Positions 9,691 through 54,724 are shown, counted from the stretch's first letter. The stretch is DNA of 64,000 nucleotides from an uncultured Candidatus Saccharibacteria bacterium (GCA_964646765.1 CAZYIA010000002.1:99467-163466); one strand, 5' to 3'. Notes: a model not told the origin generated them from the sequence alone. Program-made: numbers and translations.

Positions 9691-9748
9691 ATAAAAATAG
9701 TATACACCGCTATTGCACAGCAAGGATGGGTATAGTTTAATAACCCAT

Positions 9749-10666: not shown

Positions 10667-10705
10667 TTTTTTGCCACCGATCAAATTGTTTGGTTTAATT
10701 AGAAA

Positions 10706-18255: not shown

Positions 18256-19464
18256 ATGTCTATGTCTCTTCAACGAAAAAAAATTCTCCTCGGTTCATTT
18301 ATTTTTATTTCACTCTATGGGGCCGCGCTTACGTATGCAGCGATGACTTATGTTGCTCCAAGTACCGTCCAAGATCCTGTCGGTGCCCCAGGTACTTACA
18401 CAGTTGGTTTTGCTACAGCACCAAATGAGGTTCTCTATACCAATAGTTCAAACCAGCTTGCCTCTGATGCGGGGTTTACTCGTGTTCCAACAATGGTTGA
18501 TTTACCCGATCAATCAATTGGAAATAAAACTCTTACCACAATGCAGAACACGGCTAATACGAATGGTATTGCAAACGTTGGGTCAAGCTCGGTTCTCTTA
18601 ATAAATGACAGTTTTGATCACCTAAATGCGTATACTATTGGGTTAGCAGGTGAAGCAGTGCAAATGAGTAGTGGTACCATCGATAAGCTTGTTGGTCTTG
18701 GCGGCGTATCGATAAACAATGGTTCTGGTGTTGTAACACAGGCAATGGGAACGGCATCGGTGGTGGTTAACTCTGGTAGCGGTTCTATCACCAATGGCTA
18801 CGGATTTTTCTCGAACAAAATTGATGGTACAAATAAGTACGGTATTTATGTCGATGTTGACGACACTACGAATGTTCTTCGTGAACTTCAGTTGCACGAC
18901 GAAAGCCCGCTCAAATTATTTGATAAAGACAGTTCGAACTTTATTGCACTCAAGTCTCCATCAGTTCTCTTAACTGATACGACATATACACTTCCGCTTG
19001 CTGATGGTTCTTCTGGTCAATTTTTGAAAACGGACGGGGCAGGTAACCTTTCGTGGGATACGCCGGCAGGTGGTGGAGGGAGTAGCGACATTCAAACGGC
19101 AACCATTCACGTTAGTTCCGCAGAAATATTAGCACTCAACACTTCTCCTGTAGAACTTTTACCTGCTCCGGGAGCAGGTAAGGCTATTGATTTAGTATCA
19201 CTTGTCGTTAGACAGAACTTCGTTACAACTCAATATGATGGAGGATTCATGGCTATCTTCCCGAGTCTTTACTTTGGTGTAGGTAATATCAGCGACAACA
19301 TTAGTGGTACTCAGCTTGATTTTACTTCTTCGCGTATTACTAAAATGACTATGAACGGCCTCATGGTAGAGAATGAGCCTCTGTATCTTGGAACAAGTGC
19401 CAATCCAACCAATGGTGACGGCACCCTCGATTTCTATATAACCTATCGAATTATCGATTTGTAA
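18256..19464 (+). CDS. Membrane-anchored surface protein, family member B (paralog of 16951..18243)
   Basis: MSLQRKKILLGSFIFISLYGAALTYAAMTYVAPSTVQDPVGAPGTYTV, NVLRELQLHDESPLKLFDKDSSNFIALKSP and GNLSWDTPAGGGGS match the upstream gene in both order and spacing. The C-terminus ends TLDFYITYRIIDL, against IDLYVTYTTINL in the paralog. Confidence 0.55.
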   Translation: MSMSLQRKKILLGSFIFISLYGAALTYAAMTYVAPSTVQDPVGAPGTYTVGFATAPNEVLYTNSSNQLASDAGFTRVPTMVDLPDQSIGNKTLTTMQNTANTNGIANVGSSSVLLINDSFDHLNAYTIGLAGEAVQMSSGTIDKLVGLGGVSINNGSGVVTQAMGTASVVVNSGSGSITNGYGFFSNKIDGTNKYGIYVDVDDTTNVLRELQLHDESPLKLFDKDSSNFIALKSPSVLLTDTTYTLPLADGSSGQFLKTDGAGNLSWDTPAGGGGSSDIQTATIHVSSAEILALNTSPVELLPAPGAGKAIDLVSLVVRQNFVTTQYDGGFMAIFPSLYFGVGNISDNISGTQLDFTSSRITKMTMNGLMVENEPLYLGTSANPTNGDGTLDFYITYRIIDL

Positions 19465-29715: not shown

Positions 29716-30108
29716 ATGGAATCACCAAAAGAAGAGGAAGCTTTTTCTGTAGTAAAGAGAGCACGAAGTTTTACCCATGCTTGGCGCGGATTATGCATTA
29801 TGGTTAAAACGCAGCATAATGCCTGGCTTCATGTATTAGCCGCACTGGTTGCAATTGCTCTTGGTGTATATTTTTCAATCTCTACAACTGAATGGTTTGC
29901 CCTCATTATTTCTATTGGTGTGGTATTAGTGGCTGAAGCGTTTAATACGGCAATTGAAGTTGATATCAATTTAACTTCACCGGAATATCACCCGTTTGCA
30001 CGCGACACCAAAGACATTGCCGCTGGGGCAGTGCTCATTTCAGCCCTCATGGCTCTCACTGTTGGCCTTATGATTTTTTTACCGAGAGTCCTTGAACTTC
30101 TTTCTTAA
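29716..30108 (+). CDS. dgkA: Diacylglycerol kinase / undecaprenol kinase family (DgkA)
   Basis: AWRGLCIMVKTQHNAWLHVLAALVAIALG and AEAFNTAIEVDINL carry the conserved E..NTAIE motif. Three transmembrane helices, about 130 aa. Confidence 0.7.
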   Translation: MESPKEEEAFSVVKRARSFTHAWRGLCIMVKTQHNAWLHVLAALVAIALGVYFSISTTEWFALIISIGVVLVAEAFNTAIEVDINLTSPEYHPFARDTKDIAAGAVLISALMALTVGLMIFLPRVLELLS

Positions 30109-32518: not shown

Positions 32519-32581
32519 GTTGAACCTACTATACTCGCTGTTCGCTTTATCGCCAAACCTGAGTTACTATAGCGAATATCT

Positions 32582-33475
32582 ATGGCACTAGGTTTCCGTG
32601 AAAAACTAAAAGCACGTCAGGAAGAAATCCGAGGCGTACTTTGTGTTGGACTCGACCCACTCCCAGAAAAATTGCCGTCCTCTCTCTCAACCGGCTCACA
32701 TCCTTCACAAACTGCTCACGATATTACGGAGTGGATGAAGGCTATTGTGGACGCTACCGCTCCATACGCCACCATGTTTAAGCCACAGAAAGCTCACTGG
32801 GAGGCATTTGTTGGTGGCGACTATGCGCTTCAAGAAGTGATTACCTACATTCATAAACGCTATCCAGGTATTGTGGTTTTTGAAGACTGTAAACGTGGAG
32901 ATATTGGTCGCACTCAAGAACGATATCGTATGAGTGTCTTTGAATTTGACGGGGCTGATGGCGCTAACTTTTCTCCATACATGGGCCGCGAGTGTATGGA
33001 ATATTTCGTTGATCAAAATCATAAAGAGCGCTCAATTGTTGGACTCTGTTATACGAGTAATCCTTCAGCGCGCGAGATCCAAAATCAAAAATTAGAAAGC
33101 GGAGAATATCTCTGGGAATTTATTGCTAAGCGTACACTTGCGTGGGCAGACGAACTCGGAGTAACCGAAAATGCTGGTCTTGTGATGGCTGCTGCATATG
33201 AAGAAGAAAAGGGATCCGGTAAGATCAAAACTGATCATCTCACTCGTTGTCGCCAAATTGTTGGCGACAAATTCTGGTTCTTAATTCCAGGTGTTGGAAC
33301 CCAAGGTGGTTTTGCTTATGAAACTGTTCAAGCTTCGTTTGCTGGTTTCGGTTCCATTGCGGTGAATTCTTCAAGCGATATCAACTTTGCTTCAAGTGGT
33401 CCTGACTTTGCCGACGCTGCTGCTCAAAAAGCAAAGGAGCTCCATCTAGAGCTCCAGGCTGCATTACCAAACTAG
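32582..33475 (+). CDS. pyrF: Orotidine 5'-phosphate decarboxylase, type 2
   Basis: LCVGLDP near the N-terminus, a length of about 295 aa and KRGDIGRT are typical of the long-form PyrF. Confidence 0.7.
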   Translation: MALGFREKLKARQEEIRGVLCVGLDPLPEKLPSSLSTGSHPSQTAHDITEWMKAIVDATAPYATMFKPQKAHWEAFVGGDYALQEVITYIHKRYPGIVVFEDCKRGDIGRTQERYRMSVFEFDGADGANFSPYMGRECMEYFVDQNHKERSIVGLCYTSNPSAREIQNQKLESGEYLWEFIAKRTLAWADELGVTENAGLVMAAAYEEEKGSGKIKTDHLTRCRQIVGDKFWFLIPGVGTQGGFAYETVQASFAGFGSIAVNSSSDINFASSGPDFADAAAQKAKELHLELQAALPN

Positions 33476-34248
33476 TTTTTTGCCATTGCTTCGCGAAGCG
33501 GCGTCCAGTTATCCTTTGGTTTCCAAATGATATTTCCGGCTTCGATATCGGCTTGTACGGCCGTGTCGTCTTGGCGAAATTCAGGAATAGGGAAGGCAAG
33601 AAGAGCAATAACCTTAAGGGTTATATCGTTTTCACTGTAGATATCGGTCACTTTCGAAGAACGATTCAAAATATCAGTTACGGCAACCGGCACGCCACCT
33701 TTTTCGGTAATGGCAGCAATCGATTTTCCAATAGTTGAGAAGTTAAAAGAAACATCTTCAGAAATAATTACTTTGTCGCCTGGTTCAATGCGATGACGGA
33801 AGAATCCCATCTTCGTTTCTTCGCGCTCTCCGATAGCTGCGGCCTTGGTTACTTTCTTTTCAATGATGGCAAAACGCGTGCCGAGTTCAGCAGCTAAAAA
33901 ATTTCCAATGCCAATGCCGCCCATTTGTGGTCCTGCCACAACATACTGTGCGGCGTGTGTTTCAATATCTGGAATTGCCTCCCGAACTTTTTGAGCAATC
34001 AGTTTTCCGATATATGAAAGAATAGTTGGATACTGTTCAATTTGCGCGCAGTTGATGTAGGTTTCACCAACCCACTGTTTCATTTCACCGTTATCTTCAT
34101 ATGTTCCGGCATAGCCAACTAATGGACCAAGACGCTTTCCGCTCACATCTTTCGGCACGGTGTACATTGCGCCACACGCTTTCAAAATTGCCACCGGGTC
34201 GCCTGGGTTTTTTTCAATGATGGTTTGAAGTTCGTTGGGCGAGAGCAT
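33472..34248 (-). CDS. pyrE: Phosphoribosyltransferase-domain protein, probably orotate phosphoribosyltransferase
   Basis: The PRPP-binding motif is KVIISEDVSFNFSTIGKSI (acidic-hydrophobic followed by a T/G-rich loop). It is convergent with and overlaps pyrF by 4 nt. Confidence 0.55.
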   Translation of the reverse strand: MLSPNELQTIIEKNPGDPVAILKACGAMYTVPKDVSGKRLGPLVGYAGTYEDNGEMKQWVGETYINCAQIEQYPTILSYIGKLIAQKVREAIPDIETHAAQYVVAGPQMGGIGIGNFLAAELGTRFAIIEKKVTKAAAIGEREETKMGFFRHRIEPGDKVIISEDVSFNFSTIGKSIAAITEKGGVPVAVTDILNRSSKVTDIYSENDITLKVIALLAFPIPEFRQDDTAVQADIEAGNIIWKPKDNWTPLREAMAKN

Positions 34249-41991: not shown

Positions 41992-43266
41992 ATGAACTCA
42001 CTTATTCAAAAGATAAAGACAGTTTTCACGGATGCTTCGATTCGTCGTCGTGTTATCGTGGTACTTCTTTCCCTCGTTGTCTTCCGACTGCTTGCGTCGA
42101 TTCCAGTTCCTGGTATTGATGCAAATCGTTTGGCAGCATTCCTCGCTAATAACCAGTTTCTCGGTATCTTAAACATCTTCTCAGGTGGTGGACTTTCAAA
42201 CCTTTCGGTGATCATGCTCGGTGTTGGTCCGTACATTACGGCTTCCATCGTGCTTCAACTCCTCACGATTATGGTGCCATCACTTAAGCGTCTCTACCAA
42301 GAAGAAGGTGAAGCTGGCCGCAAGAAATTTGCCCAGTACTCACGTCTTCTTACAGTACCGCTTGCTGCTGTTCAAGGATTTTCCCTCATGACCATTCTTG
42401 AACGACAGGGAATTCTGGTTAGCCCAGATCTCTTTCACAAGTTTGTAACCCTCGCGGTTATCATTGGGGGCTCACTACTCCTTATGTGGATTGGAGAACT
42501 TGCTACTGAATTTGGTATTGCAAACGGTGTCTCGCTTATTATCTTTGCTGGTATCGTTGCTCGTCTTCCTCGTGAAGTTGGACAACTTCTCTTTACCTTC
42601 GATGCTTCGCAGATTCCGCAGTACATCGTATTCCTTTTGGTTGCTGCTCTCCTTATTCTTGGAGTGGTTATCGTTACTGAAGCGGAACGTCCAATTCCAG
42701 TAACGTATGCTCGCCGAGTTACGGCAACAGGACGCGCAACAGGTGGTGTCTCAACATACCTTCCAATTCGCGTGAACCAGGCTGGTGTGATGCCAATCAT
42801 CTTTGCGCTTTCACTCCTCCTCATTCCGCAGCTTCTTGGAACCCTTCTGTCGAATAATGCGCATGCATCTCTCCAAGCAATTGGTCATACACTCGCACTA
42901 TTCACTCAGAATACTTGGGGCTATCTTGTTGCCTACTTCGTTCTCGTGTTTGTCTTTACCTACTTCTATACAGCGATTACTTTCGAACCACATCAGCTCG
43001 CTGAAAATCTTCAGAAAGGTGGTGCGTTCGTTCCAGGTATTCGCCCAGGTAACGATACCGAGCAGTACGTTGGCAACATTGTTTCTCGCATTACCTTTAT
43101 TGGTGCGCTCTTCCTCGGTGTTATTGCGATCTTGCCACTTCTCATGCAGAAGTTAACTGGCATCACCGCAATTGCAGTCGGTGGCACAGCGCTCCTCATC
43201 GTAGTGTCTGTTGTGCTTGATTTCTTGAAACGAATCGACGCTCAGCTTGCGATGCGCGAGTACTAA
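41992..43266 (+). CDS. secY: Preprotein translocase subunit SecY
   Basis: Ten transmembrane helices are present, and the protein has GIDANRLAAFL, FSGGGLSNLSVIMLGVGPYITASIVLQLL and IPGIRPG. Confidence 0.92.
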   Translation: MNSLIQKIKTVFTDASIRRRVIVVLLSLVVFRLLASIPVPGIDANRLAAFLANNQFLGILNIFSGGGLSNLSVIMLGVGPYITASIVLQLLTIMVPSLKRLYQEEGEAGRKKFAQYSRLLTVPLAAVQGFSLMTILERQGILVSPDLFHKFVTLAVIIGGSLLLMWIGELATEFGIANGVSLIIFAGIVARLPREVGQLLFTFDASQIPQYIVFLLVAALLILGVVIVTEAERPIPVTYARRVTATGRATGGVSTYLPIRVNQAGVMPIIFALSLLLIPQLLGTLLSNNAHASLQAIGHTLALFTQNTWGYLVAYFVLVFVFTYFYTAITFEPHQLAENLQKGGAFVPGIRPGNDTEQYVGNIVSRITFIGALFLGVIAILPLLMQKLTGITAIAVGGTALLIVVSVVLDFLKRIDAQLAMREY

Positions 43267-43288
43267 ATTCTTCTCGAAAGGATTAAAA

Positions 43289-43316
43289 ACAGCCTGCTTT
43301 CGCAGGCTGTTTTTGT
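43289..43316 (+). terminator. Rho-independent terminator between secY and adk
   Basis: aaacagcctgctttcgcaggctgttttt. Confidence 0.55.
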
Positions 43317-43324
43317 GTGTTAGG

Positions 43325-43921
43325 ATGGCTCGTATGAATCCTAAAACCTATGTATTTTTCGGTAATGTTGGTGCCGGAAAGGGAACCCAGATTGAACGCC
43401 TCCAGAAATACCTTAAGGAAAAAACTGGCCAAGATACAGCATACGCGTATCCAGGCGGAGAGTTTCGGAAACTCATTGGTGGAACAGGTTATACCTCGTC
43501 GTTGGTAAAAGATATTTTGAGCGCTGGGAAATTAGTACCGATGTTCCTGGTTTCGTGGGTTATTGGCAATGTTCTAGTTGAAAAACTTACCAGCCCTGAC
43601 ATGCATGTAATTTTTGACGGTTTCCCACGATCACTCGATCAGGTAATTGCTTTTGAATCGACGCTCGATTTGTATAAGCGTACAAATGTTGAACTTGTCT
43701 ATATCGAAGTGCCGAAAGAGGAAGTGATTAAACGCATGAAGCTACGCGGTCGTTTTGATGACACCGATGAAGGTATTGCTCAGCGTTTTTCGGAGTATGA
43801 AAACAATGTACTTCCTGCATTAAATCTTTTGAAAGAAAAGGGATACCCAGTACATACGATTCATGGAGCTCAGAGTATTGAAGAAGTATTTGCTGATCTC
43901 GTTAAAGCGCTCAATGTGTAA
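43325..43921 (+). CDS. adk: Adenylate kinase
   Basis: MARMNPKTYVFFGNVGAGKGTQ carries the canonical GxxGxGKGTQ P-loop. The start was moved from the listed TTG at 43247 to the ATG after the terminator. Canonical position after secY. Confidence 0.8.
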   Translation: MARMNPKTYVFFGNVGAGKGTQIERLQKYLKEKTGQDTAYAYPGGEFRKLIGGTGYTSSLVKDILSAGKLVPMFLVSWVIGNVLVEKLTSPDMHVIFDGFPRSLDQVIAFESTLDLYKRTNVELVYIEVPKEEVIKRMKLRGRFDDTDEGIAQRFSEYENNVLPALNLLKEKGYPVHTIHGAQSIEEVFADLVKALNV

Positions 43922-43923
43922 GT

Positions 43924-44604
43924 ATGAATAATCGCACCATCATCTCTCTCGGCGGTTCACTCGTAGTACCAAACGGTATCGATACCGAATTTTTGTCTAC
44001 GTTTGTTTCGCTTATAAAAAAAGAAGCAGAGAATGGTAAAGAATTTTCGATTGTGGTTGGTGGTGGCAAAGTGGCGCGTGATTACCGCGACGCACTTACT
44101 GCTCTTGGAGTTTCAGATAACGATATCCTTGATTGGCAGGGGATTTACGCCACACGATTGAATGCCGAGCTCGTTCGCCTCGCATTTGGTGAAACTGCTG
44201 AACCAGAAATTTTTCTTGAACCAGCGCAAGCTAGTTTTAAAACTAAGCGTATTCTCATTGGCGGCGGCTGGAAGCCAGGTCACTCAAGTGATGGTGCTGC
44301 TGTTGGCCTTGCAGAAGCACTTAAAGCGGGAACACTCATTAATCTTTCAAATATCGACTACGTCTACACTGATGACCCTCGCAAAAATCCTGAAGCCACA
44401 CCAATCGAAAAAATTAGTTGGGCAGAGTTTCGAAAGTTACTACCAACAGAGTGGAATCCTGGTGTGAATGCACCATTTGATCCAGTTGCCGCACAGATGG
44501 CCGAAAAAATTGGTCTTACTGTTGTGGTGATGAATGGCAAAAATTTGAATAATCTTAAAGCGTACCTTTCTGGCGAGCAGTTTATTGGTACGGTCATTTC
44601 TTAG
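43924..44604 (+). CDS. pyrH: Uridylate (UMP) kinase, short archaeal/CPR-type amino-acid-kinase fold
   Basis: IISLGGSLVVPNG...IVVGGGKVARDY...ILIGGGWKPGHSSDGAAV is the amino-acid-kinase family pattern. The length is about 225 aa. Confidence 0.65.
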   Translation: MNNRTIISLGGSLVVPNGIDTEFLSTFVSLIKKEAENGKEFSIVVGGGKVARDYRDALTALGVSDNDILDWQGIYATRLNAELVRLAFGETAEPEIFLEPAQASFKTKRILIGGGWKPGHSSDGAAVGLAEALKAGTLINLSNIDYVYTDDPRKNPEATPIEKISWAEFRKLLPTEWNPGVNAPFDPVAAQMAEKIGLTVVVMNGKNLNNLKAYLSGEQFIGTVIS

Positions 44605-45376
44605 TATGGCTATCATTATTAAAACCGAAGAAGAAATTGCGCATCTTCGTGAGGGGGGCAAGCGCTTAGCAAAAATTTTAGCTGAGGTGGCAACTCATGT
44701 CCGCCCAGGTATTTCTACACTCGAACTCGACAAAATTGCGGAAGGGCTTATTCGTGATGGTGGAGACGAACCAGCATTCAAAGGTTATCGCCCAGCTCAC
44801 CATATGGCTCCGTATCCAGCGTCGCTTTGTACCTCACTAAATAGTGAAGTGGTACATGGTATTCCACGAGCGAGCGTTATCTTAAAAGAAGGTGATATTG
44901 TTTCGCTCGATCTTGGTTTAAAACACAAAAATCTTTTTACCGATCACGCTATTTCAGTTATCGTTGGCAAAGGCTCAAAGAAAGATCAAGAATTTTTGGA
45001 AAACACTAACGAAGCACTACTTGTGGGAATTTATGAAGCAGTAGCAGGGAATCGCACAGGTGATATCGGCGCGGCTATTTCGGAATTTGTAAAACCATTT
45101 AAATATGGGGTGGTTCGTGATCTTGCTGGTCATGGTGTTGGGCGTGCAATCCACGAAGATCCATTTATTCCAAACTATGGCAAACGAGGAACTGGAGCGC
45201 TATTAGAGCCAGGAATGGTAGTTGCTCTTGAGCCAATGCTTACCCAAGGTGGTGCTCCGACAATCGTTGATGCTGACGGCTACACCGTTCGTACTGCCGA
45301 CGGTTCTCGCGCTGCTCACTTTGAACACACGATTCTCATCACTGAAGGAGAGGCTGAAATCCTGACTATTTTCTAA
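44585..45376 (+). CDS. map: Methionine aminopeptidase, type I
   Basis: IKTEEEIAHLREGGKRLAKIL, metal-ligand His/Asp/Glu positions (HGIP...; DLG; HGVGRAIHEDP; EPM; FEHT). Confidence 0.88.
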   Translation: MVRSFLSMAIIIKTEEEIAHLREGGKRLAKILAEVATHVRPGISTLELDKIAEGLIRDGGDEPAFKGYRPAHHMAPYPASLCTSLNSEVVHGIPRASVILKEGDIVSLDLGLKHKNLFTDHAISVIVGKGSKKDQEFLENTNEALLVGIYEAVAGNRTGDIGAAISEFVKPFKYGVVRDLAGHGVGRAIHEDPFIPNYGKRGTGALLEPGMVVALEPMLTQGGAPTIVDADGYTVRTADGSRAAHFEHTILITEGEAEILTIF

Positions 45377-45397
45377 GGTGCGCTATAATAGTGGGAG

Positions 45398-48136
45398 ATG
45401 GAAAGTTTCCCGCAAGCGTCCAAATTTAAAACGGCTGAAGAAGAGCTCGCTTTTTTGCGTGCTCATATTGCTGAACGCGAACAAAAATCTGCTGAGATGG
45501 GCACAGGCGGTGGCAGTGAAAAAGCAGCGGAAGCCACACTTGAAGCATACAAGCGTGCTGACGCTGCAGAAGTGCTTCATGAAGCTGCGAAATTGCCGGA
45601 GCATCAGGTTGAACAATTAGTTCTTAATTTAAAACCTGAAACACACGATCGCCAGATGGAAGAGCTTCTCGGGATTCTTCTTGAGAATGGTATTAAGAAC
45701 GCCCTTGATGTAGTTGAGGCTATGCAGAACCCGCACTTAACCGATGATTTTCATCGTTTTCTAGTGCAGTACCTTGTAAGTACCAACGGTATTCCAGGAC
45801 TAAAAGAATCGCATCCACTTTGGAAAGGAGTGAATATGAAGCTTTTTGAAATTACCCTTCCTGAACAAGGAAAAGATGAAGCAAAGGGCTACAAAGAATT
45901 TATTGCCGCTATGGAGCAATTTTACGCTGGCATGCTCTCCGCTGGCGGAACTGACAATCCAAACCGTAAATACTACACCCTTGAAATCGCGGTTAATAAT
46001 AAGTCACCGCAAATCATGTTCTATGCTGCGGTGCCGAATGAAAAAGTAGATCTCTTTGAAAAACAGGTTCTTGGTTTCTACGAAGATGCAAAAGTAAAAG
46101 AAATTTCTGACGACTACAATATTTTTACTGAAGGTGGTGAAGCCGCTGGTTCATATGCCAAGCTTGGGGAAGTAGAAGTATTTCCACTGAAAATGCATGA
46201 TGAACTCGAGCACGACCCGATGAAGGCTATCATCAATGCCTTTTCAAAATTGAAGGATGAAGGTGAAGGTGCTGCTATTCAGTTTATGGTAGTTCCTGCG
46301 GGGGAACGACTAGTAAAGCAATTTTCTAATGTCCTCTGGCGAGTGAAAGAGGAAAAACTTCGAGCTCGAGAAGCTCTTAAGCTTTCAAACTCAATTGGCC
46401 GGGAAGTATTTCACCTGGCCAAACAGTTTGTAAAACCAACTTCCAAAGAGCGTCTTGAACAAAAAGGCCGCGCAAATGAAAAAGATATTGAAAATATCAC
46501 TAATAAGTTAAAAAGCACTGTTGTTGATGTTGCTGTTCGAGTAGTTGCTTCAGCTGCTACTCGTGAACGAGCGAAAGACATTTTGCGTGAAATTGAATCA
46601 GCATTCTATCAATTCTCAAATCCAACTGCGAACCATATTGAATGGGAACGTGTTGAAGGGCGTCGGGCAAGCGAACTCTTCCAAGAATTTTCATATCGTA
46701 TGTTCAATGAGGAAGAGCGCATGTCGCTTAATCTTCGCGAACTTGCCTCACTTTTTCATTTCCCAATTGGTATTTCTTCTTCACCTGAACTCAAGCAAGC
46801 TAAGGCTGCAACTGCTCCAGTGCCACTGGAAATGAAGGCTGACGCCGGCGGTATTTTCTTAGGTACCAATGAGCATCGTGGTGGATCGAAGAAAGTATTT
46901 ATGGGCAAAGAAGATCGCCGTCGTCACTTCTATGCTATTGGTCAAACCGGTACTGGTAAGACAACCATTTTGAAGCACATGATCATTCAAGATATTCAGA
47001 ATGGTGACGGAGTGTGTTTCATCGATCCGCATGGTTCTGATCTCCAGGACATTATTGCCAATATTCCAAAAGAGCGTATCGACGATGTTATTTACTTTGA
47101 TCCGGCGTACATTGCTCGGCCAATGGGGCTAAACATGTTGGAATACGATCCACGATACCCAGAACAAAAAACCTTCGTGGTGAACGAGCTTTTGGCTATT
47201 TTTAATAAGCTCTTCGATATGAAAACGGCCGGTGGCCCAGCGTTTGAACAGTACTTCCGTAACTCGTCGCTTTTGGTTATGGAAGATCCAGCATCTGGTT
47301 CAACGCTCCTGGAAATCGGTCGCGTGCTCGCGGATAAAGAATTCCGCGATCTCAAACTTTCTCGTTGTAAAAACCCAATCATCAAACAATTTTGGGAAAA
47401 TGCTGAAAAAACATCGGGCGAACAATCATTGGCAAACTTCGTACCATACGTTACCAACAAGTTCGATGTGTTCGTTTCAAACGACATCATGCGTCCGGTT
47501 ATTGCTCAGGAAAAGTCCGTATTCAATTTCCGTGAGATTATGGATAATCGCAAGATCCTTCTCGTGAATCTTTCGAAAGGCCGTTTGGGTGATATTAACT
47601 CAAACCTTATTGGTCTCATTTTGGTTGGAAAGCTTACGATGGCGGCGCTTTCTCGTGTCGATATTTTAGGCAAACAAGAAGTGCACGATTTTTACCTCTA
47701 CATCGACGAATTTCAGAACGTCACAACCGACTCCATCGCAACAATCCTTTCCGAAGCCCGCAAATACCGCCTGTGTTTGAATATCGCCCATCAATATATC
47801 GAACAGCTTGATGAGAAGATCAAAAATGCCGTCTTTGGAAACGTGGGATCGATGGCCATCCACCGTGTTTCGGTGGAGAATGCGGAGGTGTTCGCTAAAC
47901 AGCTTGAACCGACATTCACTGCAGAAGATATCATTAAACTCGAGAACCTTAATTGTTACATAAAGATGCTGGTGAACGGCATGCCGGTAAAACCATTCAA
48001 CTCGAAAACACCGTTTCCGCCGAAGGGTAATCCAGAGCTTGCTGAAAAGATTAAAGAGCTTTCGTACCTCAAATTCGGGCGAGATCGGGAAGAAGTGGAA
48101 AGTGAAATCATGGCCCGCTACGTTCAGCAGTTCTAA
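45398..48136 (+). CDS. Large soluble P-loop ATPase of the VirD4/TraG/TrwB coupling-protein superfamily (ATPase domain in the C-terminal half; about 450-aa N-terminal domain of unknown function, no transmembrane segments)
   Basis: Walker A is HFYAIGQTGTGKTT, followed by CFIDPHGSD. Walker B is LYIDEFQN. The region SEARKYRLCLNIAHQYIEQL resembles the TraG-D_C motif. Confidence 0.6.
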   Translation: MESFPQASKFKTAEEELAFLRAHIAEREQKSAEMGTGGGSEKAAEATLEAYKRADAAEVLHEAAKLPEHQVEQLVLNLKPETHDRQMEELLGILLENGIKNALDVVEAMQNPHLTDDFHRFLVQYLVSTNGIPGLKESHPLWKGVNMKLFEITLPEQGKDEAKGYKEFIAAMEQFYAGMLSAGGTDNPNRKYYTLEIAVNNKSPQIMFYAAVPNEKVDLFEKQVLGFYEDAKVKEISDDYNIFTEGGEAAGSYAKLGEVEVFPLKMHDELEHDPMKAIINAFSKLKDEGEGAAIQFMVVPAGERLVKQFSNVLWRVKEEKLRAREALKLSNSIGREVFHLAKQFVKPTSKERLEQKGRANEKDIENITNKLKSTVVDVAVRVVASAATRERAKDILREIESAFYQFSNPTANHIEWERVEGRRASELFQEFSYRMFNEEERMSLNLRELASLFHFPIGISSSPELKQAKAATAPVPLEMKADAGGIFLGTNEHRGGSKKVFMGKEDRRRHFYAIGQTGTGKTTILKHMIIQDIQNGDGVCFIDPHGSDLQDIIANIPKERIDDVIYFDPAYIARPMGLNMLEYDPRYPEQKTFVVNELLAIFNKLFDMKTAGGPAFEQYFRNSSLLVMEDPASGSTLLEIGRVLADKEFRDLKLSRCKNPIIKQFWENAEKTSGEQSLANFVPYVTNKFDVFVSNDIMRPVIAQEKSVFNFREIMDNRKILLVNLSKGRLGDINSNLIGLILVGKLTMAALSRVDILGKQEVHDFYLYIDEFQNVTTDSIATILSEARKYRLCLNIAHQYIEQLDEKIKNAVFGNVGSMAIHRVSVENAEVFAKQLEPTFTAEDIIKLENLNCYIKMLVNGMPVKPFNSKTPFPPKGNPELAEKIKELSYLKFGRDREEVESEIMARYVQQF

Positions 48137-48183: not shown

Positions 48184-48762
48184 ATGACTATCTTACCGTT
48201 GCCTCTCATCCTCGGTTCCTCTTCGGAGTTTCGGGCGCTTGAACTTCGAAATGCCGGGTACGATTTTACTGTGCGCACTGCTGATATCGACGAGAAAAAA
48301 AATCGGCATACTGATTTGCGAAAATTACCCCTTTTTATTGCTGAGGCAAAGGCTGAAGCTCTTCTCCCGCAGATCCAAGAACCGTCAATTCTACTCACGG
48401 CTGATGTGGTCGTTATCGCCAATGGCGAGCTCCGTGAAAAACCTATCGATGAAACGCAAGCGCGCACATGGTTCCACTCATATAGTAGCGGTGTGCCAGC
48501 AGTCATTTATACTGGCCTTGTCGTAGTGAACACTAAAACCGGAAAACGCGCCGAAGGTATTGATGAGTGTGTCGTGCATTGGAATCATATTCCTGAAAAT
48601 GCAGTAGAGAAAATTATTGCCGATGGTACGATTTTCAAAACCGCTGGCGGATTCACAAATGAAATTGCTCTTGAATTTGGACGGCAACCACTTCCGTCAG
48701 GCGATCGCCGTCGCGGCATCCCGATCTATCTTTTTGAAGAATTAGTGCAGAAAGTCTTGTAG
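48184..48762 (+). CDS. maf: Maf-family nucleoside triphosphate pyrophosphatase
   Basis: LILGSSSEFRALEL matches the Maf N-terminal signature (LILAS.SPRR..LL). The length is about 190 aa. Confidence 0.7.
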   Translation: MTILPLPLILGSSSEFRALELRNAGYDFTVRTADIDEKKNRHTDLRKLPLFIAEAKAEALLPQIQEPSILLTADVVVIANGELREKPIDETQARTWFHSYSSGVPAVIYTGLVVVNTKTGKRAEGIDECVVHWNHIPENAVEKIIADGTIFKTAGGFTNEIALEFGRQPLPSGDRRRGIPIYLFEELVQKVL

Positions 48763-48764
48763 CT

Positions 48765-49349
48765 ATGCATGAAGAAATTGAAATAAAGTTTTTGGAGGTA
48801 GATATTCCAACACTTGAAGAAAAATTTCTTTCCTATGGTGCTACCCGGGTGGGAGAGACTCTTTCACGTATCACTAATTTTGATTTTCCCGACTACCGCT
48901 TAAAAAGCGATCATGCGTGGGTACGGCTTCGAACAGAGTTTGGAAAGACAACTCTTACCTATAAGCAGCGAATTGGTGTAGTTTCTAGCGATACATCACT
49001 GCGTGACGAAGGAATGCGCGAAATTGAAATCACTGTTTCTGATTTTGAGACAATGCGCAAATTACTTCACGCTATTGGCATGATTGAGAAATTTTCCCAG
49101 GAACGGAAAAGAATTCATTTTGAAAAAGACGACCTGTCTTTTGACATTGACACGTGGCCTCTCATACCGCCGTACTTGGAAATTGAAGGAAACAGCTGGG
49201 AGAATGTCGAAAAAGCGGCTTCTGATCTCGGCTTTGATTACGATAGCCATCTTCGCTGTTCGGCAGGTAATATCCTTACCAAATACGGATATCCTGACCA
49301 TGATTATTCCATTTTTACCTTCAGTGAACAGATAAAAAAGAATTTGTAA
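48765..49349 (+). CDS. CYTH-domain (triphosphate tunnel metalloenzyme, CyaB/ThTPase-like) protein 1
   Basis: EIEIKFL is the N-terminal CYTH ExExK motif. Alternating acidic beta-strand residues (RLR, ExE) and YLEIEG are present. Confidence 0.65.
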   Translation: MHEEIEIKFLEVDIPTLEEKFLSYGATRVGETLSRITNFDFPDYRLKSDHAWVRLRTEFGKTTLTYKQRIGVVSSDTSLRDEGMREIEITVSDFETMRKLLHAIGMIEKFSQERKRIHFEKDDLSFDIDTWPLIPPYLEIEGNSWENVEKAASDLGFDYDSHLRCSAGNILTKYGYPDHDYSIFTFSEQIKKNL

Positions 49350-49422
49350 AACCACCAAATTTTTGCTAGTATCTGGCTGTATTTTAGTAGTCCTATAGAG
49401 CGAGAAATCGCATTTTTTATTT

Positions 49423-50007
49423 ATGGCAGTACACCCGAAAGAGGAGCGCACATACGTGATGATCAAACCGGATGGCGTTCGCAAAGGCCTTATTGGAGAG
49501 GTCATCAAGCGTTTCGAACAGCGCGATCTTAAAATTGTCGCTCTTGAGATGTTTACCCCGACTCGCGACCAGGTTCACAACCATTATCCGCAGGATGAAA
49601 AGTGGATTCGTCGCCTCGGTGAAAAAACCGCTGCTACTTATGAAAAGTACGGCTATGACTTGAACGAACTCGGTACATCCGATCTTCTTGAGATTGGTGG
49701 CATGGTTCGCGAATGGCTCCTTGATTTCATGACCAGCGCTCCGATGGTTCGCATGGTGGTGCAGGGACTCCACGCTGTAGACGTTGTCCGAAAAATTGCA
49801 GGCCCAACGATGCCGTATCTCGCTGAAATGGGAACGATCCGCGGAGATTACTCAATTGACTCTCCAGCGCTTGCAAACAAAGAAAAGCGCGCAGTTGCAA
49901 ACATCATTCACGCTTCAGAAACTGCTGAAGAAGCAGCACATGAAATCGAATACTGGTTCGGCAAAAGCCCGATTCACCCGTACAAGCGTTTCGGTGTAGA
50001 CGAATAA
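49423..50007 (+). CDS. ndk: Nucleoside diphosphate kinase (long form, 194 aa)
   Basis: RTYVMIKPDGVRKGLIGEVIKRFEQRDLKIVALEM... NIIHASETAEEAAHEIEYWF carries the NxxHGSD-like active-site His region. Confidence 0.8.
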   Translation: MAVHPKEERTYVMIKPDGVRKGLIGEVIKRFEQRDLKIVALEMFTPTRDQVHNHYPQDEKWIRRLGEKTAATYEKYGYDLNELGTSDLLEIGGMVREWLLDFMTSAPMVRMVVQGLHAVDVVRKIAGPTMPYLAEMGTIRGDYSIDSPALANKEKRAVANIIHASETAEEAAHEIEYWFGKSPIHPYKRFGVDE

Positions 50008-50019
50008 AAAGAAAAGTCA

Positions 50020-50128
50020 CAAACTGCTTACTAAGGAAAACGGAATATTTTTCTGCGGAAAAATTTCCTCCGACTCGCACCCAGTGCTCCGTCGAGTTTC
50101 CTTAGTAAGCAGTTTCTTTTTTTGAGAG
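50020..50128 (+). terminator. Long-stem hairpin (about 19 bp, about 55-nt loop) plus T-run after ndk
   Basis: caaactgcttactaaggaaa … tttccttagtaagcagttt is followed by cttttttttg. Confidence 0.45.
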
Positions 50129-50129
50129 G

Positions 50130-50813
50130 TTGTTACATAACCCAACTAGCAGTATGCTGATTACTATCATGCGGCCTATTTTAGAAATCTACAAACAATA
50201 CAATATTCCACCGAAGCTTGAGGAGCACATGCTTACAGTTGCCGGAGTCGCTCTTTGGATCGGTGAACACATCGAAGTGCCGCTTGATACTGACCGGGTA
50301 GTAACCGCGGCGCTTCTTCACGACATGGGAAATCTGGCGAAGTTCAAATTTGATTCTGATCTCTACCCGATATCTGACGAAGAGCGCGAGTACTGGAGGC
50401 GGGCGCAGTTGGAATTTTTTCACAAATATGGTCGTGACGAATACGAAGCAACCCTCCATATCGTCAGAGAACTCGGGATGCCCGATACGGTAACGTCACT
50501 TCTCGGTAGCGCCGGATTTAAAAGCGCATGTCTTGTATTAGAGGGAGCTAATTGGGAATACAAAGTTCTCGATTATTCTGATATGCGCGTCGGCCCGCAT
50601 GGAATTGTTTCACTTGATGAACGCCTGCTTGATCTTAAAAAGCGTTATGGTGAAAAAGTAGTTGTTGAGACGAAGGAAGAAGCAGAAAAACAATCCGAAT
50701 GTCTTCGCATGCTTGAGAAACAACTGTTCGAAAAGATTTCCCAAGATCCAGCCGCTATTTCTTCGGAAACAATCTTCTCGTATCGCGAGCGTGTACGCGC
50801 ACGGAATATCTAA
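50130..50813 (+). CDS. HD-domain metal-dependent phosphohydrolase
   Basis: The H…HD motif is TAALLHDMGN. The protein is helical and about 225 aa long. Confidence 0.6.
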   Translation: MLHNPTSSMLITIMRPILEIYKQYNIPPKLEEHMLTVAGVALWIGEHIEVPLDTDRVVTAALLHDMGNLAKFKFDSDLYPISDEEREYWRRAQLEFFHKYGRDEYEATLHIVRELGMPDTVTSLLGSAGFKSACLVLEGANWEYKVLDYSDMRVGPHGIVSLDERLLDLKKRYGEKVVVETKEEAEKQSECLRMLEKQLFEKISQDPAAISSETIFSYRERVRARNI

Positions 50814-50814
50814 T

Positions 50815-51351
50815 ATGGAAATTGAAACTAAAGTTCTTGAGATCGATCGGGTTTTGGTTGCTCAAAAGTTACGAGCGCTCGGAGCAAACGAAGTCCAAAA
50901 CGTGCGTCTTATCGTTGATTGGTATTCGCCGGCAGACATTTTGGGGGATACTCATCCGTGGTATTTGCGTGTGCGAAGCTTTGGAGAAGAGAAAGCAGAG
51001 ATTTCCTGGAAGTCTTTGCCGAAAATAATAGGGAATACGCGTCATTCAGAGGAAATAACCGTTCCGGTAAGTGATTTTGAGACAGCAAAAAGTATTTTAG
51101 ATGCTCTCGGGTTTAAAAACTACGCTCACCAGGAAAAAGACCGGCTCTCGTTTGTCTATAAAGCTTGGAATTTTGATATTGATCAGTATCCAGACATGCC
51201 GTGCTACTTAGAAATTGAAGGAAACTCGTATGAACACGTACAAGAAGCAATTTTGTTACTTAATTTAGAAAACCACGAAAGTATTTCTGAAGGAGAACGC
51301 CTTCTCATTGAAGAGAAATACAAACTAAACTGGAGTGACATGCGATTTTAG
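50815..51351 (+). CDS. CYTH-domain protein 2 (paralog of 48765..49349)
   Basis: MEIETKVLEID carries the ExExK motif. The shared C-terminal box YLEIEGNSYEHVQEA matches YLEIEGNSWENVEKA in the paralog. The start was moved to the Met after the HD-gene stop. Confidence 0.6.
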   Translation: MEIETKVLEIDRVLVAQKLRALGANEVQNVRLIVDWYSPADILGDTHPWYLRVRSFGEEKAEISWKSLPKIIGNTRHSEEITVPVSDFETAKSILDALGFKNYAHQEKDRLSFVYKAWNFDIDQYPDMPCYLEIEGNSYEHVQEAILLLNLENHESISEGERLLIEEKYKLNWSDMRF

Positions 51352-52087: not shown

Positions 52088-54724
52088 ATGTTTGACCAAG
52101 TATGGTTATTTCTAAAGCTCCGTATTTTTTCCGAGAAGGTTCTCATCGGAGCTTTTGTATTTATTTCTCTCTATACAGGCGCCTTATACGCATTTGCGGT
52201 TACGTATGTAAACCCGGGAGATGTTCTTGATCCTTCAGGATTGCCTGGGAGTTACACAGTTCGAATATTTCCCAATCAAGCCGGCCATGCTGGAGAGTAC
52301 CTCACTACCGATGGCTCAGGAAATCTAAGCTGGGATTCAGTCTCTGGTTCCGGTAGTCCTGCGGGGAGTGATGGAGAAGTGCAGTTTAATAATGGAGGCT
52401 CTTTTGGAGCTTCGTCTCATTTTTTCTGGGATAACAGCACTAATCGTTTGGGAATAAAGACAAATACTCCGGAAGCGAGTCTGCATCTGCTAGCTTCGCA
52501 AAATATTATTCCAGGAACCCCCGGCACTATCGGTTCAACTTCCTATACTCCCACTGGTCCAGGAGAGCTTGATGACGCGACATTTGGCGGAGATTACTCT
52601 GGAGACAGCGATTGTACAATTGCTGCAGGCATCGCAACGACAGCCCCAGGAAATGGCCATACCAATGATGAATTTATCTGGGGGTATGTAAGCGGTTCTT
52701 GCAGTGGGGGGTCAGGCACTCCGACTGAAATCACCCCAGGAGCTCCTCAGGCTCTTGAGAATGGCATTACGATTACTTTTGCATCAGGAACCGGTCATAC
52801 ACCGTTAGGTGAAGATTTTAGTTCAATTTGGACAGCGGCGGTTACCGCAGGTACTCCAGATACTACGAGCGCTGGAGATGATCCGTTTTTGATCACGAAT
52901 AGTGATGATGCCACTGTATTTAAGGTGGCAAACGACGGCAGAATTTCGGTAGGAGGTAGCATCGGTTCGTCTACCGTATTAATTCACGCTCTTGAAGGCT
53001 ACCGGGCGCTGACGATTCGTAACTTTGACGACAGCAGCCTTCTTTTTTCCATTGATGATTTAGGGGATGCCGATTTGTTTGGTGATTTAAGCGTTGGAGG
53101 TAATTCCTTGGCTGTAAACGGAGTTGATTATACGTGGCCTAGTTCCCAAGCTGGTGGTTCCGGGTATGTTCTTACAAACGATGGTTCGGGTGGGTTATCT
53201 TGGACAGTGCCAGATGGTGGAGGTATTACTGTTGACGCAACAAGTTATAATATCTTTTCCGATAATATAAATGCTGGTACTTCACTTACTAGCGGTACAA
53301 CAAATACTTTTTTTGGTCGGCATGCAGGATCTATTAATACCGAGGGTTCAAGTAATATTTTCATTGGACCATATTCTGGATCCTCAAATACGACAGGCAA
53401 CAACAATGTGTTTTTAGGTTCAAATGCTGGTTTTACTAGCATGATGGGAGACGATAATATTTTTATCGGGACTAATGCTGGGTATCAGGCAAATGCCGCT
53501 CAGTATAATGTTTTCTTAGGTGCAGGTGCGGGCTACTCAAATCTTTCAGGAAATTTAAATGTTGCTATTGGGTATAATGCAGGATCTGTTGCTTCTAATT
53601 ATCAAAATACCTTTATTGGCGCTTATGCGGACGCCACAATTAATACAGTCACTGAATCTATAGCACTTGGCTCTTATTCTAAAGTTAGCAATTCAAATAC
53701 ATTTGTCGCAGGTTCACAAAACGCTCCAATAACAGATGTATATTTTGGTGGAGGAGAGCATCTCGATTGGATGTACGCACCATTCGGTTATACAATTCAC
53801 GGCACCGATGCTAATGGTAATAATTTAAAAGGCGGAGACATTACTCTTATGTCAGGAGCGGGAAGCGGAAATGCTGATGGAGGAGATATTCGCATCGGGG
53901 TCGCTCCGGGCGGTTCTTGCGGCACTCCATCATCTGGCAGTACAAACGGCACGCTGTGTCGTGGGATTTTCGTTTCAGGCAATTACGGAGAAGTAAGTTT
54001 CGGATCATATACCCAATCTCCGGGAACGTTTTACACATTCCCATATAATGACGGCTCGAGCGGTGATGTTCTCGTAACCGACGGTGCCGGTGTTATAACT
54101 TGGGAAGATCCAAGCCTGCTTCCATCTGATATCTCTCTTAAAACAAACATAAACCCGATTTCCTATGGACTCGAAACTCTAGAGAATCTTCGCCCCGTTT
54201 CTTATACCTTGATTGCCTCAGGACGTCCGCAGGTTGGTTTTATCGCCCAGGAGGTTGAAACAGTTGTGCCTGAATTGGTCGGGGTAATCTCGGGAGATAA
54301 AAAAGGAATTCAATACGGCCAGCTCTCAGCGGTGATTGTAAAAGCGATTCAGGAGCTCGACCTTAAGGTACAAAACCTTGAATTGCTTACCGGAGAGGCA
54401 ACTTCAATTGCCGGTCAGTTTACAGAAACGATTCTCCGTGTAAAAAGCATCGTCTTTGGATCGTCTGAAGACCCAACAGGATTTACCATGTATGATACCG
54501 TCACTAAAGAACCGTATTGCGTAACACTTACTAGCGGAGATTTCGTTAAAACCCCGGGTGTTTGCGGTGAAGACAGTAATTTAGGATCTTCTGGAAGTGG
54601 AGACGGCGATGATATTCAAACAGAGGAAACCGTTACTCCGGATGAGCAAGAAGAAGGTGGAAGCGGAGAAGAAATTACTACGGAAAATCCTTCTCCTCAA
54701 GCGGAGCCTGCTCCTATAGAGTAA
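52088..54724 (+). CDS. Tail-fiber-like surface protein: N-terminal transmembrane anchor and family box shared with 16951 and 18256, Gly/Ser-rich hinge, beta-helix-like N.F.G..AG repeats, C-terminal phage intramolecular-chaperone (peptidase S74-like) domain, acidic tail
   Basis: The N-terminus is KVLIGAFVFISLYTGALYAFAVTYVNPGDVLDPSGLPGSYTV...GSGNLSWD. Repeats read NIFIGPYSGSSNTTGNNNVFLGSNAGFTS / NIFIGTNAGYQANAAQYNVFLGAGAGYS. The C-terminal chaperone region is SDISLKTNINPISYGLETLENLRPVSYTL...QVGFIAQEVETVVPELV. Confidence 0.6.
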   Translation: MFDQVWLFLKLRIFSEKVLIGAFVFISLYTGALYAFAVTYVNPGDVLDPSGLPGSYTVRIFPNQAGHAGEYLTTDGSGNLSWDSVSGSGSPAGSDGEVQFNNGGSFGASSHFFWDNSTNRLGIKTNTPEASLHLLASQNIIPGTPGTIGSTSYTPTGPGELDDATFGGDYSGDSDCTIAAGIATTAPGNGHTNDEFIWGYVSGSCSGGSGTPTEITPGAPQALENGITITFASGTGHTPLGEDFSSIWTAAVTAGTPDTTSAGDDPFLITNSDDATVFKVANDGRISVGGSIGSSTVLIHALEGYRALTIRNFDDSSLLFSIDDLGDADLFGDLSVGGNSLAVNGVDYTWPSSQAGGSGYVLTNDGSGGLSWTVPDGGGITVDATSYNIFSDNINAGTSLTSGTTNTFFGRHAGSINTEGSSNIFIGPYSGSSNTTGNNNVFLGSNAGFTSMMGDDNIFIGTNAGYQANAAQYNVFLGAGAGYSNLSGNLNVAIGYNAGSVASNYQNTFIGAYADATINTVTESIALGSYSKVSNSNTFVAGSQNAPITDVYFGGGEHLDWMYAPFGYTIHGTDANGNNLKGGDITLMSGAGSGNADGGDIRIGVAPGGSCGTPSSGSTNGTLCRGIFVSGNYGEVSFGSYTQSPGTFYTFPYNDGSSGDVLVTDGAGVITWEDPSLLPSDISLKTNINPISYGLETLENLRPVSYTLIASGRPQVGFIAQEVETVVPELVGVISGDKKGIQYGQLSAVIVKAIQELDLKVQNLELLTGEATSIAGQFTETILRVKSIVFGSSEDPTGFTMYDTVTKEPYCVTLTSGDFVKTPGVCGEDSNLGSSGSGDGDDIQTEETVTPDEQEEGGSGEEITTENPSPQAEPAPIE

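Follow-up and report, generated by a model that had tools for sequence, protein, structure and literature searches.

A soluble DUF8128 ATPase with a coupling-protein-like motor and a predicted VirB4-like N-terminal domain occupies a conserved chromosomal position in Nomurabacteria-like genomes

We report that the gene at positions 45398 to 48136 of a 64,000-nucleotide stretch of DNA (CAZYIA010000002.1:99467-163466, assembly GCA_964646765.1; the whole stretch is referred to as the window) encodes a 912-residue protein of the DUF8128 family that very probably is a soluble ATPase of the VirB4/VirD4 group (FtsK-HerA superfamily) with a motor like that of type IV coupling proteins (T4CPs). Its domain organisation is predicted to be that of VirB4, since models of both the N-terminal domain and the full-length protein align to VirB4 chains, and the sequence of its motor is that of a coupling protein. 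The gene is a vertically inherited core gene in Nomurabacteria-like genomes and not an insertion at the end of a ribosomal operon, and the first 137 residues of its product are a partner protein that other Parcubacteria encode in a separate gene and that is fused in the window protein. The gene and the parts of its product are as follows:

45398..48136 (+): complete gene for the 912-residue soluble protein with DUF8128 domain and T4CP-like ATPase (open reading frame, translation and the 92%-identical homologue P0001)
45398..45808 (+): N-terminal helical module, residues 1-137, all-helical in the AlphaFold2 model (helical at residues 13-127)
45815..46792 (+): DUF8128 core, residues 140-465, alpha/beta, with a predicted VirB4 N-terminal-domain-like fold
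46835..48133 (+): TrwB/VirD4-type ATPase domain, residues 480-912 (Pfam, Foldseek and conservation)
46931..46966 (+): Walker A motif (P-loop) YAIGQTGTGKTT, residues 512-523 with K521, aligned with the TrwB P-loop
47015..47041 (+): CFIDPHGSD, residues 540-548, counterpart of VIVDPNGD in TrwB
47120..47545 (+): all-helical insertion inside the ATPase domain, residues ~575-716, where TrwB has its all-alpha domain
47696..47719 (+): Walker B motif LYIDEFQN, residues 767-774 (D770, E771), aligned with LFIDELAS in TrwB
47750..47809 (+): segment SEARKYRLCLNIAHQYIEQL, residues 785-804, in the TraG-D_C region, aligned with GRKAGLRVVAGLQS in TrwB

The open reading frame (ORF) runs from an ATG to a stop codon, and more than 1,700 homologues were retrieved from a set of 5.8 billion proteins, the closest of which (P0001) is 92% identical with 100% of the length covered; 45398..48136 is therefore a real gene and not a chance ORF. 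The 120 best homologues are all between 905 and 924 residues long and at least 60% identical. No transmembrane (TM) helix was indicated by a Kyte-Doolittle scan, which was run without a dedicated TM predictor; the maximum 19-residue score was 1.53, compared with 3.03 for SecY, encoded 3 kb upstream, and the full-length AlphaFold model (predicted local distance difference test, pLDDT, 80) contains globular soluble domains only. A preliminary description of the window had already given the 912-residue ORF, four ATPase motifs (residues 512-523, 540-548, 767-774 and 785-804) and a soluble protein devoid of a TM anchor; the ORF and all four motifs are present as described, and neither the hydropathy scan nor the AlphaFold2 model points to a TM segment that had been missed.

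The C-terminal half was scanned against Pfam both in the window protein and in 33 more divergent family members, for which 25 families were listed. In the window protein TrwB_AAD_bind scored 27 bits (cutoff 20.5) and TraG-D_C 23.1 bits (cutoff 22), in both cases by a small margin; DUF87 (HerA) reached 21.4 bits, under its cutoff of 23.2, and covered the P-loop only, as did weaker matches to generic AAA families. TrwB_AAD_bind and DUF87 were matched in 33/33 family members, TraG-D_C in 32, T4SS-DNA_transf in 24, FtsK_SpoIIIE in 15 (weakly, best E 1e-4) and the VirB4-type family AAA_10 in two, and in the homologue P0297 TrwB_AAD_bind is matched from profile position 7 to position 302 of 387. The VirB4 families PF03135, PF12846 and PF19044 gave no match in the window protein; the two of these other than AAA_10 are not among the 25 families listed for the 33 members, and CagE_TrbE_VirB never matches. 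Sequence matches in the PDB at E<0.02 were restricted to TrwB, DotL and a short DnaA-related protein (P-loop region only), with TrwB as the best, and in the TrwB alignment the P-loop, the DP(H/N)G motif, Walker B and the R...Q segment are all in register. Consistent with this, Foldseek aligned the modelled C-terminal half to TrwBΔN70 over approximately 435 columns with a target-normalised TM-score of 0.68-0.70, and HerA structures aligned less fully (0.53-0.54).

Across 75 aligned homologues G515-K521, the D543 P544 H545 G546 motif, D770 through N774 (including E771) as well as R788, K789, Y790, H798, Q799 and Y800 are invariant. By analogy with TrwB, R788 is a candidate arginine finger and Q799 a candidate sensor. 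The helical insertion comprises approximately 140 residues (helical at residues 590-716 in the model), and the alignment with TrwBΔN70 extends over the whole chain; VirB4 also carries a helical insertion at the position of the all-alpha domain. The ATPase half is approximately 60% identical even between proteins whose N-terminal halves are only approximately 30% identical. The motor is strongly constrained and closest to that of a coupling protein, which bears out the preliminary assignment of this half to the coupling-protein-type P-loop ATPases. It is not placed with HerA or FtsK, in agreement with the same description: the features of those families, i.e. a HerA-type barrel with a NurA partner, FtsK membrane and gamma domains and above-cutoff scores, are lacking in the window protein, and no barrel, NurA or gamma domain was seen in the Pfam scans of the window protein and family or among the neighbouring genes.

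The N-terminal domain had been described as soluble and unassigned. It is soluble, and it does have a family, since PF26449 (DUF8128) is a precomputed match in all 120 best homologues including the 92%-identical one; the local Pfam scan of the window protein itself gave no PF26449 match, and membership in DUF8128 thus comes via its homologues and not from a direct score. Residues 1-465 were searched against 1.84 billion cluster representatives, giving 951 clusters at E<=1e-3, and nearly all representatives of at least 650 residues carry a P-loop downstream (the two exceptions are apparently truncated sequences), so that the N- and C-terminal halves constitute a fixed combination. When residues 1-470 were modelled separately (pLDDT 85) and compared with solved structures, all 14 Foldseek matches at E<1e-3 were TrwK/VirB4 chains, and the full-length model aligned to VirB4 chains over 850-930 columns. 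The models accordingly predict an architecture of VirB4 type, that is, a soluble protein in which a VirB4-type N-terminal domain is followed by a RecA-like C-terminal ATPase. No paper on DUF8128 was found in the literature, and the names given to family members in the databases are generic (hypothetical protein, DUF87 or DUF8128 domain-containing, TraD DNA-binding domain-containing protein).

The helical module that precedes the DUF8128 core has the invariant motif HD..MEELLGILL.KGIKNAL...NPH.DDDFHRFLVQYL. Short-form relatives of 780-860 residues, present in other Parcubacteria (Portnoybacteria and others), begin at approximately residue 140 of the query, and in the 83 short-form loci the ATPase gene is directly preceded, in the same orientation, by an ORF for a small soluble protein of 115-190 residues. 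Two families of this small ORF account for 59 of 78 cases, C1 for 40 and C5 for 19. With a profile of query residues 1-145, hmmsearch gave 35 matches among 986 ORFs, all of them C1, and hhalign aligned the helical module with C1 at a probability of 97.8% (E 1e-12, 128 columns, including the GIKNAL...DDFHRFL motif). C5 was also considered as a relative of the module and was ruled out, no relationship being detectable (hhalign probability 0.4%). Neither C1 nor C5 was found in the plasmid or phage loci of homologues from outside the Patescibacteria. C5 (L090-L161) is a conserved soluble protein of approximately 170 residues with the motif ...WL..IPGVN.FFLEQEAKIKTD, it precedes about a quarter of the short-form genes, and it may be an alternative partner of the short-form ATPase.

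In the window the genes upstream of the ATPase gene are, in order, those for L15, secY, adk, an AA_kinase (UMP-kinase-like) and map, and downstream follow Maf, CYTH, NDK, an HD hydrolase, a second CYTH, a large S74-domain surface protein, a beta-CASP nuclease, a SLOG protein, a P-type ATPase and L20. The order secY-adk-map previously given thus needs correction, with the kinase gene inserted between adk and map. The alpha operon had been expected after map; in a scan of ORFs 3' of the ATPase gene, up to 62.8 kb, none of its genes was found, nor were any found downstream in related genomes. The place taken by the ATPase gene is itself a case of conserved vertical synteny. To sample the long form, 80 species-level loci were collected from GTDB genomes (there are at least 543 confirmed relatives), which carry the labels Candidatus Nomurabacteria, Paceibacteria or Parcubacteria. 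In 59 of the 69 loci whose upstream sequence is long enough, map precedes the ATPase gene in the same orientation (within 400 nucleotides in 38 of these), NDK lies downstream in 50/60 and the beta-CASP gene in 54/60, and the order secY-adk-kinase-map-ATPase gene-NDK-beta-CASP is kept in approximately 85% of the informative species at 54-74% protein identity to the window protein. Two more contigs, found by exact look-up, have the same gene order. In a sub-clade of six species the gene resides in another housekeeping block, after NusA, pyrophosphatase, trigger factor, ClpP, RNase Y and HU, with a two-component pair and the CCA-adding enzyme on its 3' side; HU is directly upstream in 6 loci. The G+C content at the gene (0.43-0.45) is like that of its flanks and shows no compositional anomaly. 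We also note that a run of nucleotide-metabolism genes encloses the ATPase gene, with adk and the UMP-kinase-like AA_kinase gene at 43247-45376 on one side and Maf, CYTH, NDK, HD and the second CYTH at 48184-51351 (+) on the other.

The neighbourhoods of 164 related loci were inspected over 8-10 kb. No Replic_Relax-like ORF was found within this range in any of them or anywhere in the window (four-sequence profile), and no VirB4-like gene was detected near the ATPase gene with Firmicutes and Streptomyces queries, a test of low sensitivity. Around the short-form genes (L082-L164) a frequent order is small ORF, ATPase, GtrA-like membrane protein and dnaX, with dnaX within a few genes in 39 of the 83 loci, and genes for PMT_2-type glycosyltransferases and for a POTRA protein like FtsQ often precede them. 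Neither these glycosyltransferases nor the POTRA protein nor PilM was found near long-form genes or in the window. Moreover, Minisyncoccia/Parcubacteria have a second T4CP-like family (P0516, P0520, P0521, P0523, P0528), with a CxxC-x17-CxxC domain (PF23477) where DUF8128 would be.

Relatives outside the Patescibacteria came from 72,556 plasmids and 50,697 phage genomes that were searched in translation. They align as a single segment covering query residues ~205-888, i.e. both the N- and the C-terminal domain:

Small Bacillus plasmids and pBM69: 'DUF87 domain-containing' proteins, 833-886 residues, E 3e-31 to 3e-34, no TM helix
Streptomyces replicon: 814 residues, E 7e-54, possibly one TM helix (Kyte-Doolittle 1.86 near residue 55)
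Bacillus phage SPO1 and its relatives: gp27.4, 906 residues, E 4e-19, no TM helix

Profiles of the N-domain only and of the C-domain only each match the Bacillus, Streptomyces and SPO1 proteins, and many of the Bacillus relatives carry PF26449. For SPO1 gp27.4, query residues 206-904 are aligned (E 9e-11 with the N-domain profile and 8e-20 with the C-domain profile). A Replic_Relax (PF13814) gene is the next gene downstream in 4/4 loci inspected, and CONJscan classes Replic_Relax proteins as MOB_C relaxases (PMC5357655). Further downstream the Bacillus plasmids encode a conjugal-transfer protein, a TcpE-family protein and an AAA_10 (VirB4-type) ATPase of 848-860 residues, in the MH-1 plasmid followed by a large conjugal-transfer protein; in the Streptomyces locus a VirB4-like gene lies just upstream and a gene for a VirB1-like hydrolase downstream. 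In sequence the window protein resembles none of the VirB4-like proteins of these loci (E>0.1). With a separate and dissimilar VirB4 present, the DUF8128 family member in these loci therefore holds the slot of the coupling protein, and the MOB_C and VirB4 genes beside homologues outside the candidate phyla radiation provide further support for the assignment of the C-terminal half. The SPO1 genes 27.4 and 27.3 (L167, 5743-9280) consist of a DUF8128-type ATPase gene followed by one for a Replic_Relax nickase annotated as 'replication initiation by nicking', and this ATPase-nickase pair is common to SPO1-like phages and Bacillus conjugative-type plasmids.

The Bacillus plasmid proteins (pBM69, WP_003349917.1; B. 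subtilis MH-1 plasmid, WP_121549396.1) and the homologue on Streptomyces sp. BHT-5-2 p1 are thus homologous to the window protein over the DUF8128 domain and the ATPase (BLAST E 3e-31 to 7e-54), and the Bacillus proteins, like the window protein, have no TM helix. They differ in being only 23-26% identical, in lacking the 137-residue helical module and in having Replic_Relax/MOB_C, VirB4-like, TcpE and VirB1-like genes nearby, the Bacillus ATPase genes heading Tcp/ICEBs1-like conjugation operons, whereas the window gene has no such neighbours. SPO1 gp27.4 has the same architecture, is soluble and is 23% identical; it belongs to a lytic phage. With the T4CPs TrwB (R388), VirD4, TraD and TraG the window protein shares the order of motifs (P-loop, DP.G, Walker B, R...Q), but it has no N-terminal TM anchor and has approximately 465 extra N-terminal residues, the identity is only 16-18% and its gene lacks a relaxase or type IV secretion system (T4SS) neighbourhood. 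The preliminary description was right to argue against a canonical T4CP. VirB4/TrwK of R388 is soluble and two-domained like the window protein, but the identity is 6-10%, the window protein falls in no VirB4 sequence family, and VirB4 proteins co-exist with the DUF8128 family in the plasmid and Streptomyces loci.

A recent survey of Patescibacteria provides the setting for these observations (Quinonero-Coronel et al. 2025, PMC12102498). VirB4 was found in 2,417 of 3,035 assemblies, usually near dnaA/dnaN, and 5,713 VirD4-like homologues were found in 2,918 genomes, only 148 of them near virB4; relaxases were present in only 103 genomes, MOB_C being the commonest class, and 39 relaxase genes adjoin t4cp (PMC12102498). 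The window protein is probably among the 5,713 matches: it comes from the same taxon (Paceibacteria/Nomurabacteria) as orphan T4CP homologues of that survey, is similar to T4CP profiles and, like them, lies far from virB4. Accessions of the Nomurabacteria homologues do not occur in a part of Table S3, in which one Paceibacteria genome has several t4cp matches away from virB4, and membership by accession is to that extent not confirmed (PMC12102498). The survey treats the orphan homologues as one class detected by hidden Markov models and does not describe their N-terminal domain, synteny or fusion (PMC12102498). The PF23477 family may explain why there are approximately two T4CP homologues per genome. 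In S. epibionticum, the subject of a transposon-sequencing (Tn-seq) study, the essential T4SS cluster is stated to be without recognisable coupling and relaxase proteins (PMC10633639).

On this background the explanation that we favour, tentatively, is that the window protein is a domesticated soluble coupling-type motor that partners a T4SS. It would be a cytoplasmic ring ATPase, forming a hexamer like its relatives, in which the VirB4-like domain (residues 140-465) replaces the TM anchor and mediates peripheral docking on a membrane translocon. The N-terminal domain of VirB4 docks its ATPase onto small inner-membrane subunits of the T4SS; specifically, VirB4 docks on VirB3/VirB8, as seen in R388 structures. 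ATP would be used to feed a substrate, DNA or protein, into the translocon, and the helical module may act as adaptor or regulator. The most likely and most economical partner would be the chromosomal monoderm-type T4SS that most Patescibacteria carry and that has no coupling protein of its own in the cluster; in Parcubacteria the gene is now inherited vertically as part of the core genome, and no relaxase accompanies it. The idea, raised before, of membership in a 'minimal type IV-like system' is plausible. A function as T4SS partner is a possibility that we put at somewhat below even, and the explanation as a whole, identity and architecture included, comes close to being evenly balanced.

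Several observations weigh against a secretion partner. Neither the window (among the ORFs scanned) nor any of the 164 related loci has a T4SS, pilus or relaxase gene beside the ATPase gene, and the partner machine is therefore one that we purely infer. The fold of residues 140-465 is assigned from AlphaFold models, no solved structure being available, and matches to the NCBIfam T4CP equivalog models are local and far under their cutoffs. T4CP homologues occur in 96% of the surveyed genomes compared with 80% for VirB4, and the t4cp homologue of S. epibionticum, which may or may not be a DUF8128 protein, is reported to be non-essential where the T4SS is essential, which led the survey authors to suggest that t4cp may be exapted (PMC12102498). 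Finally, SPO1 has the ATPase-nickase pair without a T4SS, and the family can therefore work outside secretion.

The wider distribution of T4CP homologues, the exaptation suggested by the survey authors and the SPO1 pair also favour a motor that has been exapted to act on the cell's own DNA in the cytoplasm, in replication, segregation, recombination or the salvage of DNA into nucleotides, with no channel and in the manner of FtsK/HerA. Genes related to DNA and nucleotides recur as neighbours, i.e. dnaX near 39/83 short-form genes, HU in the six-species sub-clade, and adk, the UMP-kinase-like gene, Maf, CYTH, NDK and HD in the window and its relatives. These neighbourhoods shift between lineages, however, and may merely reflect housekeeping regions; there is no nickase near any homologue from these bacteria, none of the HerA or FtsK hallmarks sought above, and a fold like that of the VirB4 N-domain has hitherto been seen only in the docking domain of a membrane machine. 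We consider such a DNA motor rather unlikely, albeit the most serious competitor of the T4SS-partner explanation. A motor for DNA uptake together with ComEC and type IV pili, as suggested in the preliminary description, is improbable. Patescibacteria are naturally competent (PMC10633639), a split ComEC is encoded in the same window, PilM_2 is encoded directly 3' of one short-form gene, and the archaeal DNA-import ATPase CedD (NCBIfam) gives a weak match (E 0.005); yet the CedD score is 15.5 bits against a cutoff of 600, ComEC is approximately 40 kb away in the window, and near the ATPase gene ComEC and PilM are each found in 1/164 loci (ComEC in L087, with both of its parts). To our knowledge, no competence system pairs a T4CP-type ATPase with ComEC.

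That the protein would be the VirB4 orthologue itself, the main T4SS ATPase encoded away from its cluster, is suggested by its solubility, its two-domain architecture and the predicted fold of its N-domain, all of which match VirB4/TrwK. This we regard as very improbable given that CagE_TrbE_VirB never matches, AAA_10 matches in only 2/33 members, the VirB4-like proteins next to the plasmid and Streptomyces homologues are unrelated in sequence, and, as far as a part of the supplementary table goes, the listed Nomurabacteria genomes are scored as having a separate VirB4, with virB4 placed near dnaA/dnaN (PMC12102498). Slightly more remote still is a remnant of an integrated conjugative or mobile element, or a component of anti-phage defence like mad8 of MADS. 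The closest relatives outside the Patescibacteria do reside on plasmids and phages, and the best single-profile match of the ATPase core, and of the core only, is PADLOC mad8 (E 8.6e-12). However, the position is conserved in 59/69 species loci with invariant catalytic residues, no integrase, relaxase or defence gene is adjacent, the base composition is that of the flanks, and a scan of IMG/VR viral contigs gave only two distant matches, both to the C-domain. The eight-gene mad operon with its methyltransferase is not present, the neighbours being housekeeping genes; the mad8 match was treated as generic ATPase-core similarity, and the MADS preprint does not describe mad8.

Other features of the window are given here for completeness. 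A promoter-like site precedes the ATPase gene:

45362..45389 (+): CTGACT-16-TATAAT, 10/12 matches to the consensus, 9 nucleotides 5' of the ATG and overlapping the 3' end of map

This is the top consensus match within 41.5-52.2 kb, such sites are no more numerous overall than expected from shuffling, and the sequence is weak evidence for a promoter role; terminator and promoter scans in general gave counts no higher than expected from shuffled sequence. No tRNA genes were found in the window. As listed, the HD ORF (50130-50813) and the second CYTH ORF (50662-51351) overlap by approximately 150 nucleotides, and probably one of the two start codons is wrong. The split ComEC consists of separate genes at 1948-3405 (+) and 6951-7805 (+), one with the DUF4131 and Competence domains and the other with the metallo-beta-lactamase domain; they are separated by 3.5 kb in which SOD and GMP synthase are encoded. 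Two adjoining proteins with PG_binding_1 (peptidoglycan-binding) domains are encoded at 9713-12715 (+), the second also with a Kelch beta-propeller. Between fusA and tuf, 21944-24574 (+) encodes an 876-residue protein with a signal-peptide-like N-terminus and a C-terminal Por_Secre_tail domain, a type IX secretion sorting signal typical of Bacteroidota and odd in a Parcubacteria-type genome. The S10-spc ribosomal run is broken at 30068-34248 by three genes, for an 816-residue Mur-ligase-domain protein (minus strand), an OMP-decarboxylase-family protein and a phosphoribosyltransferase. The 878-residue protein encoded at 52088-54724 (+) has an N-terminal signal anchor and a Peptidase_S74 (endosialidase/tail-fibre chaperone) domain, and the N-terminus of a 402-residue protein encoded at 18256-19464 (+) resembles its N-terminus; the two possibly form a family of self-cleaving surface fibres.

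Orphan T4CP homologues were already known in Patescibacteria as a class, as was the DUF number of the N-terminal domain in Pfam. What appears to be undescribed is the predicted VirB4-like fold of DUF8128, the fusion or fission that involves a lineage-specific helical partner, the constant place of the gene in a ribosomal/nucleotide operon, and the homology to soluble proteins in coupling position on Bacillus and Streptomyces replicons and to SPO1 gp27.4. More speculatively, and in our opinion unlikely to be right in full, DUF8128 might be a deep VirB4/VirD4 lineage and a living intermediate, with a docking domain of VirB4 type and a motor of VirD4 type, that was domesticated together with its helical partner into an essential housekeeping function without relaxase or conjugation. 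If so, it might serve to move DNA, either host-derived or chromosomal, or to power the symbiosis T4SS.

Patescibacteria, which depend on other cells, account for a large part of the diversity of bacteria; their T4SS is essential in the one species tested, the cluster has no coupling protein, and the orphan T4CP homologues in approximately 96% of the genomes are unexplained (PMC12102498, PMC10633639). One such orphan family now gains an anatomy: a predicted VirB4-like docking domain in place of the anchor, a partner that is either fused or separate, and relatives beside MOB_C nickases. This sharpens the published remark on exaptation into testable questions, namely which membrane subunit the N-domain would bind, what the helical partner recognises and whether DNA is moved by the motor. 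The findings are also relevant to the divergence of VirB4 and VirD4, and draw attention to the soluble coupling proteins of Bacillus and Streptomyces replicons as a class.

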